From Hymenobacter sp. (lineage in GTDB: Bacteria > Bacteroidota > Bacteroidia > Cytophagales > Hymenobacteraceae), in assembly GCF_031398885.1 (NCBI RefSeq), contig NZ_JANNOD010000043.1, positions 4,415 through 68,414 of the forward strand: a DNA stretch of 64,000 bases, in the 5' to 3' direction. Shown one piece after another: positions 1,281 to 32,390 of this stretch. The notes beneath the pieces were generated by a model. That model did no database searches and was not told the origin of the DNA. It saw only the letters and a program-made list of their open reading frames with translations. Both the position numbers and the translations under genes were made by a program. Position 1 is the stretch's first letter, and the number at the start of each line of letters is the position of its first letter.

Positions 1281-3374
1281 CTATCCCTGCTGGCTTTGGA
1301 TGGCGGTAATCATCACCGTGTTGAACACGTCGTCCACGGTGCAGCCGCGGCTGAGGTCGTTCACGGGCTTGTTGAGCCCTTGCAGCACCGGGCCAATGGC
1401 CAGGGCCCCGGTTTCGCGCTGCACGGCCTTGTAGGTGTTGTTGCCGGTGTTCAGGTCCGGGAAGATGAGCACGCTGGCCTGGCCGGCCACTTCCGAGTCG
1501 GGCAGCTTCCGGCGGCCCACCAGCGGGTCCACGGCCGCGTCGTACTGAATGGGGCCCTCCACTTTCAGGTCGGGGCGCTGCTGCCGCACCAGCTCGGTGG
1601 CCCGGCGCACCTTCTCCACGTCGGCCCCCGCGCCGGAGGTGCCCGAGGAGTACGAGAGCATGGCCACGCGCGGCTCGATGCCAAAGGCCCGGCTGCTCTC
1701 AGCCGAGGAAATGGCGATTTCGGCCAACTGCTCGGCCGTGGGGTTGGGGTTCACGGCGCAGTCGCCGAACACGGCCACGCGGTCGGGCAGGCACATGAAA
1801 AACACCGACGACACCACCGACACGCCCGGCTTGGTTTTGATGAACTGCAGCGCCGGCCGGATGGTGTGCTGCGTGGTGTGCACCGCCCCCGACACCATGC
1901 CGTCGGCGTGGCCCTTGTGCACCATCATCGTGCCGAAGTAGGAGCCGTCGCGCAGCAGGTCGCGGGCCATGTCGGGGTTCACGCCCTTGTCCTTGCGCAG
2001 CGCGTAAAACGTCTCCACGTAGTCGGCGTAATGCTCCGACGCCACCGGGTCGACGATGCGCAGGTGGCCGGCGGGCAGGCGCAGGCCCAGCCGCTTGGCC
2101 GAGGCCGCCACCTCGGCGGGGTCGCCGAGAATGGTGAGGTCCACCACGTCCTGGTGGAGCAGCTGCGCGGCGGCGCGCAGGATGCGGTCGTCGTTGCCTT
2201 CGGGCAGCACGATGTGGCGCCGCGCGCGCTTGGCCCACTGCAATAGCCGGTACTGGAACATGTGCGGCGTGAGGCCGGCGGCCTGGAAGCTGACGAGCTT
2301 TTCTTCCAGGGCCCGCACGTCCACGTGCCGCTCGAAGGTGGCGAGGGCCAGCTGAATTTTCTTGGGGTTGTCGGGCGTGAGGCGCGACTGGATGGCCCCC
2401 ACGCGGGTGGCGGTTTCGAAGGTGCCCGCGGGCACGGCCAGGATGGGCACCTCGTTGGGCAGGCCTTCGAGCAGGCGCACGATGGGCGCATCGGGCTCGG
2501 AGCCGGCCGTGAGCACGATGCCCGCCACCCGCGGGTAGCTGGCCGACAGGTTGGCCTGCAAGGCGCACACGATGATGTCGCCCCGGTCGCCGGGCGTCAC
2601 AATCAGCACATTGTCTTTGAGGTGATTCAGAAACTGGGGCACCTGCATGGCCCCAATGATGTAGTTGTCGACCTGCCCGCCCAGGCCCGCTTCGCCGAAC
2701 AAGAGCTTGCCACCCAGCCCGGCCTGAATCTCGCGCATGGTGGGATGCAGCAGGTTGGGGTCGTCGGGCACCACGGCCAGCAGCACGGCCGGCGGCAACT
2801 GGCTGCGCAGCAGGGCCCGCACGTCCTCGGCCTGAGCGGGCGCCACGCGGTTGGCCACGGCCAGCAGCACCGGCACCTCGCGGGCCTCGAAGGTGCGCAG
2901 CAGCGTGAGCACCGAGCTCACCACCTGGGCCGTGCTCTTGCCCGCGCCCGACACCACCAGCACCACCGGCACGCCCAGGTTCTTGGCAATCGAGACGTTG
3001 GCGTCGAACTCAATGGCCGTGCCCGGTCCCAGAAAGTCGCTACCTTCCACCACCGTGAAGTCGTAGTTGTCCTCCCAGTGCTTAAACTTGCGAATCACCG
3101 CGTCAATCAGCTCGCCCTGGGCGTCGGCTTCGAGCAGCCGCAGCGCCTCGGGGCGGGTGTAGGCGTAGGTTTCGGCGTAGGGCAGCGGCAGCCGGAAGTA
3201 GCTCGTCACGGCCTCGATGTGCGGGTCGGGCCCCTGGGCGGGGTCGTAGTCGATGATGGGCTTGAAGTAGCCCACCCGGCGGGCCTGGCCCAGCAGCATA
3301 TTTACCAGGCCCAGCGCAACCAGGGACTTGCCGCTGCTGGGCTCGGCGGCGGCAATGAAAACGGCTTTCGTCAT
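1281..3374 (-). CDS. pta: Phosphate acetyltransferase (long form, AAA_26/DRTGG + PTA_PTB)
   Basis: 697 aa; TPGDRGD, IVLPEGNDDRIL, GPIQYDAAVD, FPDLNTGNNTYKAVQR and PVNDLSRG motifs. Confidence 0.97.
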   Translation of the reverse strand: MTKAVFIAAAEPSSGKSLVALGLVNMLLGQARRVGYFKPIIDYDPAQGPDPHIEAVTSYFRLPLPYAETYAYTRPEALRLLEADAQGELIDAVIRKFKHWEDNYDFTVVEGSDFLGPGTAIEFDANVSIAKNLGVPVVLVVSGAGKSTAQVVSSVLTLLRTFEAREVPVLLAVANRVAPAQAEDVRALLRSQLPPAVLLAVVPDDPNLLHPTMREIQAGLGGKLLFGEAGLGGQVDNYIIGAMQVPQFLNHLKDNVLIVTPGDRGDIIVCALQANLSASYPRVAGIVLTAGSEPDAPIVRLLEGLPNEVPILAVPAGTFETATRVGAIQSRLTPDNPKKIQLALATFERHVDVRALEEKLVSFQAAGLTPHMFQYRLLQWAKRARRHIVLPEGNDDRILRAAAQLLHQDVVDLTILGDPAEVAASAKRLGLRLPAGHLRIVDPVASEHYADYVETFYALRKDKGVNPDMARDLLRDGSYFGTMMVHKGHADGMVSGAVHTTQHTIRPALQFIKTKPGVSVVSSVFFMCLPDRVAVFGDCAVNPNPTAEQLAEIAISSAESSRAFGIEPRVAMLSYSSGTSGAGADVEKVRRATELVRQQRPDLKVEGPIQYDAAVDPLVGRRKLPDSEVAGQASVLIFPDLNTGNNTYKAVQRETGALAIGPVLQGLNKPVNDLSRGCTVDDVFNTVMITAIQSQQG

Positions 3375-27761: not shown

Positions 27762-29492
27762 CTACTCTACCGCCAGGCGCCGGGCCGGGCCGGCGCCGCG
27801 CAGCAGGTAGAGGCCGGCGGGCAGCCCGCCCAGGTCCAGGACCGTTTCGGGTCCGGCCGGGGCAGGGTAGCGGCGCACGGCCCGGCCCAGCGCATCGGTG
27901 AGGGTGAGCGGGGCGCCGGGCGTGCCGGTGGGCAGGCGCAGGGTGGCCGTGTGGCGGGCGGGGTTAGGAAACAGGGCCGCCGGCTCGCGGGGCCCAGCGG
28001 TGGCGGTGGCCGTCAGGGTGGGGTCGGTGAGGGAGGCGAGGAAGCCGAGAATAGTATTGGTGTTCGGGTTGGAGATGGTGGTGGCGCCGAAGCTGGCGGT
28101 GGGGCTGTTAAAATATCCTGCCACGTACACATTGCTGCCGCTCAAAGCCAGCGCGAAGGCATATTCGTTGCCCGCCCCGCCGCCCCGCTGCGCCCAGGCA
28201 AAGCTGCCCGTGGGGCCCGCGTCGGCAAGCTTGGCCACGTACGCGTCGGCAGAGCCACCGGCAGTGTTCGCATTGGCCAGGGTAGTGGCGCCAAAGGCTG
28301 CTGTAGAGCTGATAAAAGCCCCCGATACATACACGCTCGTCCCGTTCACAGCCAAGGCATCGGCGCGGTCGTTGCCCGTGCCGCCGGCCCGCTGGGCCCA
28401 CACGAAACTACTAGTGCTGCCCGCGTCGGCAAGCTTGGCCACGTACGCGTCGGCAGAGTTACCGGTAGTGTTCGCATTAACCAGGGTAGTGGTACCAAAG
28501 CCCGCCGTGAGCCCGCCAAAATACCCCGCCACGTACACGTTATTGCCGCTCACGGCCAGCGCGTTGGCTTGATCGTCACCGATGCTGCCGGCCCGTTGCG
28601 CCCACACGAAACTACTAGTGCTGCCCGCGTCGGTTAGCTTGGCCACGTACGCGTCGTTTATCCCGGTGTTGGTCAGGTTCGTACTGCCAAAGCCCACCGA
28701 GGAGCTGCGAAATTCTCCGGCCATGTACACGCTCGCACCGTTCACGGCCAGCGCGTCGGCGCTGTCGTTGTCTTGGCCGCCGGCCCGCTGCGCCCAGGCA
28801 AAGCTGCCCGTGGGGCCCGCGTCCGTGAGCTTGGCCACGTACGCGTCGGAAGTGAATGCAGCGGTTCTCACATTAATCAGAATGGTGGCGCCAAAGCTGG
28901 CTGTGAAGCTGCGAAATTCCCCGGCCACGTACACGCTCGTTCCTCTCACAGCCAGGGCGGTGGCGAGGTCGTTATCCAGGCCGCCGGCCCGTTGCGCCCA
29001 GGTAAAGCTGCTAGTGCTGCCCGCGTCGGTGAGCTTGGCCACGAACACATCGGCAGAGCCCGCATTGGCCAGGGTGGTGGCTCCGAAGCTGGCCGTAGGG
29101 CTGCGAAATTCCCCGGCCAAGTACACACTCGTCCCGTTCACGGCCAGCGCGTTGGCTTGGTCGTCGCTGCTGCCACCGGCCCGCCGCGCCCACACAAATT
29201 GATTACTGACGGGGCTAAACTTAGCCACGAACACATCATCGCCCCCGACACTGGTGAGCGTAGTGCCGCCCAGCACCACGCTGTTCGCGAAGTACCCCGC
29301 CAAGTACACGTTGCCCGCCGCATCGACAGCCGTAGCCCTCACATAAGAAAAATTTCCCGTTACAGCCGCTGTGGCCGCCGCTACCACGCGGGCCGATTGC
29401 CAAGCCGGGGCTTGGGCGGCGGTCGGGGAAGCCAGGGCGAAGAACAGGCCGGCCAGCAGGCCCGCCATGCGCAGGGAGAAGACGTGCTTCAT
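27762..29492 (-). CDS. T9SS type A cargo: predicted seven-bladed beta-propeller repeat protein
   Basis: Signal peptide; seven VY[LVM][AS]G.F blades with D[AV][YF]VAKL...WAQRAGG repeats; C-terminal ALFPNPAR...GLYLLR CTD. Confidence 0.88.
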   Translation of the reverse strand: MKHVFSLRMAGLLAGLFFALASPTAAQAPAWQSARVVAAATAAVTGNFSYVRATAVDAAGNVYLAGYFANSVVLGGTTLTSVGGDDVFVAKFSPVSNQFVWARRAGGSSDDQANALAVNGTSVYLAGEFRSPTASFGATTLANAGSADVFVAKLTDAGSTSSFTWAQRAGGLDNDLATALAVRGTSVYVAGEFRSFTASFGATILINVRTAAFTSDAYVAKLTDAGPTGSFAWAQRAGGQDNDSADALAVNGASVYMAGEFRSSSVGFGSTNLTNTGINDAYVAKLTDAGSTSSFVWAQRAGSIGDDQANALAVSGNNVYVAGYFGGLTAGFGTTTLVNANTTGNSADAYVAKLADAGSTSSFVWAQRAGGTGNDRADALAVNGTSVYVSGAFISSTAAFGATTLANANTAGGSADAYVAKLADAGPTGSFAWAQRGGGAGNEYAFALALSGSNVYVAGYFNSPTASFGATTISNPNTNTILGFLASLTDPTLTATATAGPREPAALFPNPARHTATLRLPTGTPGAPLTLTDALGRAVRRYPAPAGPETVLDLGGLPAGLYLLRGAGPARRLAVE

Positions 29493-29598: not shown

Positions 29599-32235
29599 CT
29601 AGGGGGCCGCGGTCGCCGCCTCGAACTCGTCCAACCGCTTCAGCGTCCGAGCAATGTCTTCCGTGAGCAGCACCACTACTGCCCCTTCGGGCGCCGTTTT
29701 CAGCACGTGTTCCACGGCGTCCATCTCCCCCTCGATGTAGATAACGGGCAGGTCGGGCTTGTCGAGGCGCAGGCCGCGCTCCATGATTTCGCGCAGGAAC
29801 TCGGCCGACTTGCCGCGCAGGTCGTCGTTCTGGCGCAGCACCACTTCGTCGAAGATGCGGCCGGCGATGCGGGCAAAGGCCAGCGTGTCCTCGTCGCGCC
29901 GGTCGCCGAGGCCCGACACCACCCCGATTTTGCGGGTGGCCGGCGTGGCGTCCATGAACTCGGCGAATTTGGCGATGCCCGCCGTGTTGTGGGCGTAGTC
30001 CACGATGACCTCGAATTGGGGAAACTTGTAGGAGTTCATCCGGCCCGGCGTCTTGGAAGCCGACGGCACGAAGGTGCGGAAGGCGGTTTTGATGTCGTCC
30101 TTGTCGAAGCCAGCCAGGAACCCGGCCAGGGCCGCCGCCAGGCTGTTTTCGATGTTGAAGCCCGCCCGGCCGCCGAAGGTGACCGGAAACTCGGCCGCCC
30201 GGTCGATGCGCAGCTTGTAGCTGTTGCGGTAAATCGTGACGTAGCCTTCCTCGTACACCGCGGCCACGCCGCCGGCCTCCACGTGCTCCAGGATGTGCGG
30301 GTTGTGCTCGTTCATGCTGAAAAGGCCCACCCGGCAGTCCACGGTGCGGGCCATGGCGTACACCAGGTCGTCGTCGGCGTTGAGCACGGCCCAGCCGTTT
30401 TTGCGCACCGTGCGGGGCAGCACGCCCTTCACGGCGGCCATCTCCTCCACGGTGTAGATGTCGCGCAGGCCCAGGTGGTCAGCGGCCACGTTGGTCACCA
30501 CCGCAATGTCGCAGGTGTGGAAGCCCAGGCCCGAGCGCAGCATGCCGCCGCGGGCCGTTTCAAGCACGGCGTAGTCGATGGTGGGGTCGCGCAGCACAAA
30601 CTCGGCGCTGACGCCCCCGGTGCAGTCGCCCTGCTGCAACTGCACGCCCTGGATGTAGATGCCGTCGGTGGTGGTGAAGCCCACTTTGTAGCCCTTGCTG
30701 GCCACGAGATGGGCAATGAGCCGGGTAGTGGTGGTTTTGCCGTTGGTGCCCGTCACGGCGATGATGGGCACGCGGGCCGTACTGCCGGGCGGGAAGAGCA
30801 TGTCCACGACCGGGGCGGCCACGTTGCGCGGCAGGCCCTCGGTGGGCGCGATGTGCATGCGGAAGCCCGGCGCGGCGTTCACCTCAATCACGGCGCCGCG
30901 GCTTTCGTTGAGCGGCACGGCAATATCGGTGGCCATCAGGTCGATGCCGCAGATGTCGAGGCCCACGATGCCGGCCACCCGCTCGGCCAGCAGCACGTTG
31001 TAGGGGTGCATCTGGTCGGTCACGTCGGTGGCCGTGCCGCCGGTGCTGATGTTGGCCGTGCTCTTCAGGTAGAGGACTTCGTCGGCGGGCAGCACCGACT
31101 TCAGGGTTAGCTTCCGGCTCTTCAGGATGTCGAGCGTGTGCTTGTCGGCCTTGATGCTGGTGAGCACCTTTTCGTGGCCGATGCCGCGGCGGGGGTCCTC
31201 GTTGACTTTAGCAATCAACTGCTGGATGCTGCTTTTGCCGTCGCCCTTCACCGCCGCCGGGGTGCGCTTGGCCGCGGCAATGAGCTTGCCGTTCACCACC
31301 AGCAGCCGGAAATCGAAGCCTTCGATGAACTGCTCCACAATCACGGCCCGTGAATACGCCTGCGCCGCCACCAGGCCGGCGGCGGCGCCTTTCCAGTTCA
31401 TGATGCGGATGGTGGCGCCCTTGCCGTGGTTGCCGTCGAGCGGCTTGGTCACGATGGGAAAGCCCAGCTCGTCGATGGCCTCGCGCAGGCCGGCCTCGGA
31501 GTACACGGTGGTGCCGCGCGGCACGGGCACGCCCGCGTCGTGGAGCATGGCCTTGGTGCGGTTCTTGTTGCCGGCCACTTCCACGCCCGCGTGCGAGGTC
31601 AGGCTGGTGGTGGTGGCCCAGATGCGGCGCTGGTTCACGCCGTAGCCCAGCTGAATAATCGACGTGTTTTTGAGCTGGATGTAGGGAATGTTGCGCGAGG
31701 CGGCCTCGGCCACGATGCTGTAGGTGCTCGGCCCAAAAAACTCGTCTTCCCGGATTTCGTGCAGCTCGGTGATGACGGGCTTCAGGTCCACTTTCTCCTT
31801 TTTACACAGGGCTTCCACCACGTCCACGGCGGCCGCAGCGGCGCGGCGGCCGGCACGCTCCTCCTGGTAGGCAAACACCACGTACTCCACGCCGTCTTCC
31901 CGCGCCGGGTAGCTCCTGCCCCAGAACACGGGCATGGCGGCCTGCCGCTGCAGCTCCAGCGCCACGTGCTGAATGACGTGGCCCAGCGGCTCGCCGTCGT
32001 TGAGCTGCTCCAGGCCCAGGGGCGGGTGCTTGGCCGCCTGCTTGCCGCTTACGCCGCCCGGTTGCACCTGCCCAATGTTGGGAAACAGCTTCATCAGCCG
32101 CCCGGCGAAGCCCGGGATGGTATTTGACCACCGGCCGGCAAACTCCTGCAAGTCAACTTTGGCCACGATGAGCTTGTGGTGTTTGACCGACCAGTAGCTC
32201 GGCCCGCGCATGGTGCGGAGGTCAACAATTTTCAT
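29599..32235 (-). CDS. cphA: Cyanophycin synthetase (CphA1 architecture, variant N-domain)
   Basis: MKIVDLRTMRGPSYWS; ATP-grasp KPLDGNHGKG and EVNAAPGFRMH; Mur-like TGTNGKTTTTRL, ETARGG, DYAHN, GDRRD. Confidence 0.93.
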   Translation of the reverse strand: MKIVDLRTMRGPSYWSVKHHKLIVAKVDLQEFAGRWSNTIPGFAGRLMKLFPNIGQVQPGGVSGKQAAKHPPLGLEQLNDGEPLGHVIQHVALELQRQAAMPVFWGRSYPAREDGVEYVVFAYQEERAGRRAAAAAVDVVEALCKKEKVDLKPVITELHEIREDEFFGPSTYSIVAEAASRNIPYIQLKNTSIIQLGYGVNQRRIWATTTSLTSHAGVEVAGNKNRTKAMLHDAGVPVPRGTTVYSEAGLREAIDELGFPIVTKPLDGNHGKGATIRIMNWKGAAAGLVAAQAYSRAVIVEQFIEGFDFRLLVVNGKLIAAAKRTPAAVKGDGKSSIQQLIAKVNEDPRRGIGHEKVLTSIKADKHTLDILKSRKLTLKSVLPADEVLYLKSTANISTGGTATDVTDQMHPYNVLLAERVAGIVGLDICGIDLMATDIAVPLNESRGAVIEVNAAPGFRMHIAPTEGLPRNVAAPVVDMLFPPGSTARVPIIAVTGTNGKTTTTRLIAHLVASKGYKVGFTTTDGIYIQGVQLQQGDCTGGVSAEFVLRDPTIDYAVLETARGGMLRSGLGFHTCDIAVVTNVAADHLGLRDIYTVEEMAAVKGVLPRTVRKNGWAVLNADDDLVYAMARTVDCRVGLFSMNEHNPHILEHVEAGGVAAVYEEGYVTIYRNSYKLRIDRAAEFPVTFGGRAGFNIENSLAAALAGFLAGFDKDDIKTAFRTFVPSASKTPGRMNSYKFPQFEVIVDYAHNTAGIAKFAEFMDATPATRKIGVVSGLGDRRDEDTLAFARIAGRIFDEVVLRQNDDLRGKSAEFLREIMERGLRLDKPDLPVIYIEGEMDAVEHVLKTAPEGAVVVLLTEDIARTLKRLDEFEAATAAP

Positions 32236-32351: not shown

Positions 32352-32390
32352 AAAAAAAGCCCCGCCGGCCAAATGGCGAGCGGGGCTTCC
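32352..32390 (-). terminator. Hairpin/terminator downstream of tRNA-Cys
   Basis: AAAAAAAGCCCCGC...GCGGGGCTT. Confidence 0.6.

Follow-up and report, generated by a model that had tools for sequence, protein, structure and literature searches.

Loss of the primer-generating site in the cyanophycin synthetase of Hymenobacter, a probable single event in the ancestor of Hymenobacteraceae

The window analyzed here, a stretch of 64,000 nucleotides from Hymenobacter sp. (assembly GCF_031398885.1, contig NZ_JANNOD010000043.1, positions 4,415 to 68,414), encodes a cyanophycin synthetase (CphA1) that is probably primer-dependent and would extend leftover cyanophycin. Its primer-making N-domain site was in all likelihood lost once, in the ancestor of Hymenobacteraceae, and the cleft was rebuilt in Hymenobacter. 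In most CphA1, the N domain is a cryptic metallopeptidase-like endo-cyanophycinase, in which the metal is bound by C59, H79, and H83, with E82 acting as general base (Sharon et al. 2022, PMC9262961; numbering of the enzyme from Synechocystis sp. UTEX2470, SuCphA1). The exchange E82Q abolishes primer-independent synthesis along with cleavage, and H57A, C59A, R70A, and H79A reduce it (PMC9262961).

The gene, its N domain, and the parts of the domain that bear on this site are located as follows.

29599..32235, reverse strand: cphA1 coding sequence, 878 aa plus stop, with the ATG at 32235 (MKIVDLRT), from the open reading frame (ORF) and its translation
31726..32235, reverse strand: N domain, residues 1-170, with the Cyanophycin_syn fold kept (PF18921 over residues 26-145, E = 1.4e-26)
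31981..32079, reverse strand: remodelled loop, residues 53-85 (NIGQVQPGGVSGKQAAKHPPLGLEQLNDGEPLG), 7 residues longer and without Cys, replacing the canonical '..H57-x-C59-S-x-G..GGFF-x-R70-V..GT-x-x-G'
31966..31980, reverse strand: relict active-site helix motif H86-V-I-Q89-H90 (canonical HxxEH), codons CAC GTC ATT CAG CAC
31969-31971, reverse strand: Gln89 codon CAG
31906..31923, reverse strand: W105-G-R-S-Y-P110, a genus-specific conserved strand replacing the canonical polymer-contact strand G-F-G-R-T-R

In a phmmer search against PDB, residues 1-865 of the window protein align end to end with SuCphA1. Both His ligands of the metal are kept (H86 and H90, on Su H79 and H83), and Q89 falls on Su E82. 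Su H57-F58-C59 is placed on Pro-Gly-Gly of the elongated loop; the C59 position is taken by Gly (phmmer) or Gln (MAFFT), and no Cys is present among residues 1-143, the first being C144. The remodelling extends further into the cleft, as is evident from its alignment on SuCphA1 together with 19 canonical CphA1 of Cytophagales, 20 further Hymenobacteraceae, and 118 Hymenobacter homologs. The residues H57, C59, F67, H79, E82, H83, E87, G97, T101, and Y110 are invariant among the canonical enzymes, which also have R70 in 18/19 cases. At the same ten positions, the window protein has Val/Pro, Gln/Gly, Gly, His, Gln, His, Glu, Phe, Ser, and Glu, and Gln replaces R70. Among the five residues that affect primer-independent synthesis when mutated (H57, C59, R70, H79, and E82), it retains only H79. 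Gly and Arg align with S603 and E607, which contact the polymer from the M domain at the N site of SuCphA1. As judged from the sequence, the third site of the enzyme, the N-domain endo-cyanophycinase that cuts the nascent polymer into primers, is predicted to be dead.

An alignment artefact was considered and rejected: although the phmmer alignment and three MAFFT alignments vary in loop placement, none yields the Cys or the Glu, and in no MAFFT alignment is position 57 or 59 taken by Cys or His. A sequencing error at the Gln codon was also rejected, with Gln present at the same position in 97/118 Hymenobacter homologs. The best match in PDB is the engineered E82Q mutant of SuCphA1 (7TXV, 880 bits); its Gln, shared with the window protein, lifts it slightly over the wild type (7LG5, 878.5 bits).

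The biosynthetic part of the enzyme comprises the following features.

30781..31725, reverse strand: G domain (ATP-grasp), residues ~171-485, with the catalytic His270 (KPLDGNHGKG, 31417-31434); Pfam RimK/ATP-grasp at 222-325
29602..30780, reverse strand: M domain (Mur-ligase-like), residues ~486-878; Mur_ligase_M at 494-704 and Mur_ligase_C at 731-856
30730-30750, reverse strand: M-domain P-loop GTNGKTT, residues 496-502
within 30469-30486, reverse strand: M-domain D586-H587, aligned with Su D585-H586

The three-domain architecture of CphA1 (N + G + M) is complete according to both Pfam and the SuCphA1 alignment, and the catalytic residues of the G and M sites are intact: H270 corresponds to Su H267 and D586-H587 to Su D585-H586, the residues whose mutation has been used in published work to inactivate the G site and the M site, respectively. 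The protein scores 1094.1 bits with TIGR02068, the NCBIfam equivalog for cyanophycin synthetase (cut-off 850), and 1046 bits with NF010623 (cut-off 877). With both sites intact, the gene is predicted to encode a working CphA1, whose G domain would add Asp and whose M domain would add Arg. An assignment to CphA2, a shorter enzyme that lacks full M-domain function and polymerizes beta-Asp-Arg dipeptides, was ruled out by the length of 878 aa with a complete M domain, as opposed to the ~630-640 aa of CphA2. The PDB chains 7TA5 (629 aa) and 8FXH (642 aa), which we take to be CphA2 although they are not so named in PDB, cover only residues ~131-612 with 229-232 bits, compared to 880 bits for CphA1. 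The more distant CphA1 structures 7LGN and 7LGM align only from residue 75-84 onward, with 617-621 bits versus 878-880 bits for SuCphA1. Y679 of the window protein aligns with W672 of SuCphA1, whose mutation converts tetramers to dimers, and the oligomeric state may differ.

An earlier note on this stretch, made from the letters and a list of ORFs, had described an HxxQH motif without upstream Cys (Gln codon at 31969-31971) and concluded that the primer-generating site is naturally inactivated. Both statements stand, and the replacement of the supporting residues strengthens the second; alignment with characterized CphA1 does not place the catalytic Glu or Cys elsewhere. The note was also right that the ATP-grasp and Mur-ligase motifs (H270, D586-H587, and GTNGKTT) are intact and that no cyanophycinase gene is adjacent; none is present on the contig of the window.

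As a CphA1 that is complete except for its Cx19HxxEH motif, the enzyme is assigned by its sequence to a published motif-less minority. In a CphA1 set at 70% non-redundancy, 83% of the sequences have the full motif; the remaining 17-20% are regarded as primer-dependent, with in vivo primers thought to be cyanophycin remnants or other small molecules (PMC9262961). Natural representatives without Cx19HxxEH are the CphA1 of Tatumella morbirosei (TmCphA1) and Acinetobacter baylyi (AbCphA1). None of the four motif residues is present in TmCphA1, whose activity in vitro depends strictly on a primer (PMC9262961), whereas the window enzyme keeps both His, and the loss in Hymenobacter is independent. 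SuCphA1 E82Q resembles the window enzyme as a three-domain protein that aligns over residues 1-865 and has H-x-x-Q-H at the equivalent position. This engineered protein is primer-dependent and does not cleave cyanophycin (PMC9262961), but it keeps C59, H57, R70, F67, and Y110, the normal loop length, and polymer binding in the cleft. By contrast, the Hymenobacter enzyme has lost these five residues and gained a 7-residue insertion, and its Gln is natural and ancient.

The distribution of the motif across the family points to a single, early loss. The site H57-C59-R70-H79-E82-H83 is intact in the CphA1 of all 19 Cytophagales outside Hymenobacteraceae, which are the nearest outgroups (~50% identity), share the same gene lineage, and have equally conserved G and M domains; it is also found in seven representatives at 50% identity, the nearest ones that were included in the tree. 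In Hymenobacteraceae, by contrast, the Cys is absent from 38/38 CphA1 sampled in six of the eight genera (all but those designated g6 and g7). Four genera have Ser or Ala in its place (in g4-type enzymes it is Ser, next to a retained H57 and HxxEH), and Hymenobacter and a sister genus have a rebuilt loop. None of 120 Hymenobacter homologs has Cys and Glu together, and the motif states encountered comprise HxxEH, NxxEH, KxxQH, HxxQH, YxxQH, HxxYH, HxxLH, and HxxEQ.

In a maximum-likelihood tree computed without the N-domain columns, the CphA1 of Hymenobacteraceae form one clade (SH-aLRT 100) nested among the canonical enzymes of Cytophagales; the trees come from a quick IQ-TREE search, with SH-aLRT as the only support. 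Mapped onto the tree, the Cys was lost once, and the number of changes is at least five for the Glu, seven or more for H79, and three or more for H83. Such a pattern is the expected one if the early loss of the Cys ligand in the family ancestor had removed the function, because the other catalytic positions would then have been free to vary, and we read it as one loss followed by drift. Dividing the identity in the N domain by that in G + M gives 1.05 for canonical enzymes and 0.74-0.88 for comparisons that include Hymenobacteraceae, and column entropy across Hymenobacter is higher in the N domain (0.74) than in the G (0.37) and M (0.48) domains. Among the 118 Hymenobacter sequences, H86 is conserved in 76%, Q89 in 82%, and H90 in 96%; few positions of this otherwise near-invariant helix are less conserved than H86 and Q89. 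Both the faster evolution of the N domain and the low conservation of H86 and Q89 agree with a relaxed constraint on the site.

This variation also bears on whether the site might still be a weak hydrolase, in which H86 and H90 would hold a metal together with another third ligand (H70, D80, or E82) while another group activates the water. The two His are present in the window protein, E82 is invariant in the genus, D80 is found in 97% and H70 in 75% of the sequences, and a Glu serves as third ligand in the M16 inverzincins (PMC9262961). However, the general base is a Gln, and the equivalent change inactivates SuCphA1; the substrate-binding residues R70 and Y110 are also gone. Within the genus, H86 is replaced by Tyr, Ser, Leu, Phe, or Val in 24%, Q89 by Tyr, Leu, or Arg in 14%, and H70 by Arg, Tyr, or Asn in 24% of the sequences; there is therefore no conserved metal triad, and we consider residual hydrolysis very unlikely.

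The loop and the strand behave differently from the helix positions. The insertion of 7-10 residues in Hymenobacter and the sister genus is accompanied by near-invariant elements (PPL, DGEPLG, R97, WGKSYP, and E117). In the genus, P72, L73, D80-G-E-P-L-G85, R97, W105-G-K-S-Y-P110, and E117 are 94-100% conserved; in the 118 Hymenobacter sequences, the values are 97-100% for P72, L73, D80, G81, E82, P83, L84, G85, R97, and W105-P110, and 94% for E117. The cleft may therefore have been rebuilt rather than just broken, for a non-hydrolytic role in anchoring or as a surface that binds a primer or a partner. Primers would then have to be supplied in trans, possibly by the expanded cyanophycinase paralogs, which would amount to a different solution to the primer problem. 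In a count over 42 genomes, cyanophycinase genes (TIGR02069) number 2-6 per genome in 23 Hymenobacteraceae but only one in 12/19 of the Cytophagales with canonical CphA1, and both paralogs in the genome under study keep their catalytic Ser, His, and Glu motifs. Nevertheless, the correlation between paralog number and motif loss concerns a single clade and is effectively one evolutionary event. Moreover, the known CphB enzymes cleave in exo mode, and the dipeptides that they release are no primers (PMC9262961). The conserved surface can also be explained by packing against the M domain, and the data name no new ligand or partner. A new role of the cleft in priming is therefore an unlikely explanation, albeit one that deserves more weight than a surviving hydrolase.

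The gene content of the genome leaves little room for a division of labor between synthetases. The earlier note had suggested that the enzyme is a second paralog working beside a canonical CphA; such a specialized synthetase would elongate primers made by a canonical CphA1 encoded elsewhere. Its alternative suggestions, a longer polymer or the use of another primer, are conjectural. The only hint in this direction is a sister genus (g3), which usually has two cphA paralogs in separate clades, one with HxxQH or HxxEH (A) and the other with KxxQH (B). However, both lack the Cys, so that neither is a canonical primer-maker. All Hymenobacter genomes listed have a single cphA, and the assembly under study (99.97% complete) contains exactly one match to TIGR02068 over the cut-off and exactly one N domain (PF18921). 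A search with PF18921 revealed no stand-alone N-domain protein in this genome that could act in trans. On the available assembly, the probability of a paralog arrangement is negligible. The genome holds no second cphA and two cyanophycinase genes, both unlinked to it. Also the view of the two changes as a peculiarity of one gene had to be abandoned, since they belong to a trait of the whole family and to a wider remodelling of the cleft, for which reason restoration of Glu and Cys would probably not revive the activity. The novelty of the observation had likewise been overrated, because a motif-less, primer-dependent class had already been published.

The two cyanophycinases of the genome, which both exceed the cut-off of TIGR02069, are located on contigs C81 and C96. 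Each keeps the Ser of the GTSAGA motif, the His of DxHF, and the Glu motif, and no obvious signal peptide was found in either. The gene on C81 is flanked by that of an M1 aminopeptidase and by a convergent gene for a beta-aspartyl peptidase of the Asparaginase_2/IaaA type.

C81, 36-1364, forward strand: M1 aminopeptidase (leukotriene A4 hydrolase-like)
C81, ~1500-2403, forward strand: cyanophycinase, with an ambiguous start, as no ATG follows the preceding gene
C81, 2542-3747, reverse strand: Asparaginase_2/IaaA-like beta-aspartyl peptidase, convergent

This trio likely represents a cluster for cyanophycin degradation, and the genome is predicted to encode the full cycle of synthesis, depolymerization, and dipeptide cleavage. 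The linkage of synthesis and degradation genes differs among lineages: cphB adjoins cphA in 9/18 genomes with a canonical enzyme and in the genera g4 and g8, but in none of the ten Hymenobacter genomes.

If the primer-dependent reading is correct, the G and M sites would elongate existing (beta-Asp-Arg)n chains like those of any CphA1, whereas the nascent chains would not be cleaved to give fresh primers. Its behavior in vitro is expected to resemble that of TmCphA1 or SuCphA1(E82Q): elongation should be normal once a (beta-Asp-Arg)n primer is added, and no product should be detectable in its absence. Primers in vivo would be the remnants of cyanophycin granules after incomplete digestion by CphB, or other small primers, and degradation would be carried out by the unlinked cphB paralogs together with the IaaA-type beta-aspartyl peptidase.

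Several points weigh against this reading or limit its consequences. We infer the primer dependence of the Hymenobacteraceae enzymes by analogy, and a search of the literature, including the supplements of Sharon et al. 2022, found nothing on cyanophycin in Hymenobacter, on the Hymenobacteraceae enzymes, or on how motif loss is distributed among taxa. The strong conservation of the remodelled loop and strand across the genus implies a surface under selection, not one that is simply decaying. The retention of H86 and H90, with the invariant D80-G-E82 and the mostly conserved H70 nearby, may allow residual metal binding. Finally, cphA is present in 200/201 genomes of Hymenobacteraceae, compared to 19/113 elsewhere in Cytophagales; this near-universal presence suggests that the primer source works well and that primer dependence may cost the cells little. 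High yields in E. coli have also been obtained with TmCphA1 and AbCphA1, which a later preprint describes as the best producers there despite lacking the site.

In itself, a CphA1 without a primer-generating site matters little, because the class has been described and has characterized members (TmCphA1 and AbCphA1). What is added is the evolutionary context of a putatively independent, ancient, and family-wide loss in a lineage in which cphA is nevertheless a near-universal core gene. Hymenobacteraceae would accordingly illustrate that organisms in nature can do without self-priming for long periods. In addition, the family provides a clean series of natural variants with which the site could be dissected, from HxxEH without the Cys through NxxEH or KxxQH to the rebuilt cleft. 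For biotechnological use, the window enzyme would need a primer or an exchange of the N domain for a fast onset of synthesis. Should the rebuilt cleft prove functional, it would constitute a different answer to the primer problem in a family that has cyanophycin as a universal core trait.

Among CphA1 more broadly, the motif is missing in many different ways from ~50 of the ~130 representatives at 50% identity that have an N domain. One of them (P0203), which is unrelated to the Hymenobacter enzyme, reads H-G...HVMQH, with no Cys and with Gln for Glu; by its sequence, the combination of Cys loss and Glu-to-Gln exchange appears to have arisen there independently.

As for the gene itself, the corresponding product of the source assembly (P0002, 870 aa) begins at Met9 (MRGPSYW), so that positions 32212-32235 on the reverse strand of the window represent extra N-terminal codons. 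Alignment with SuCphA1 and relatives supports Met1 (MKIVDLRT, ATG at 32235) over Met9 as the start. The neighbors of cphA encode an alpha/beta hydrolase, a DUF302 protein, RpsA (rpsA), and a T9SS-sorted repeat protein, and the upstream gene ends in a terminator-like structure.

32352..32380, reverse strand: terminator-like hairpin and T-run at the end of the upstream alpha/beta-hydrolase gene (stem 32380-32361, tail GCTTTTTTTG)

The upstream hairpin with its T-run and the unrelated neighbors suggest that cphA is transcribed alone, as a monocistronic gene outside any cyanophycin cluster. Directly downstream of cphA (27762-29492, reverse strand) lies the gene of a 576-aa protein, which has no confident family match but consists of ~45-residue repeats (YVAKLTDAG...WAQRAGG...) and carries a weak T9SS type A sorting tail.

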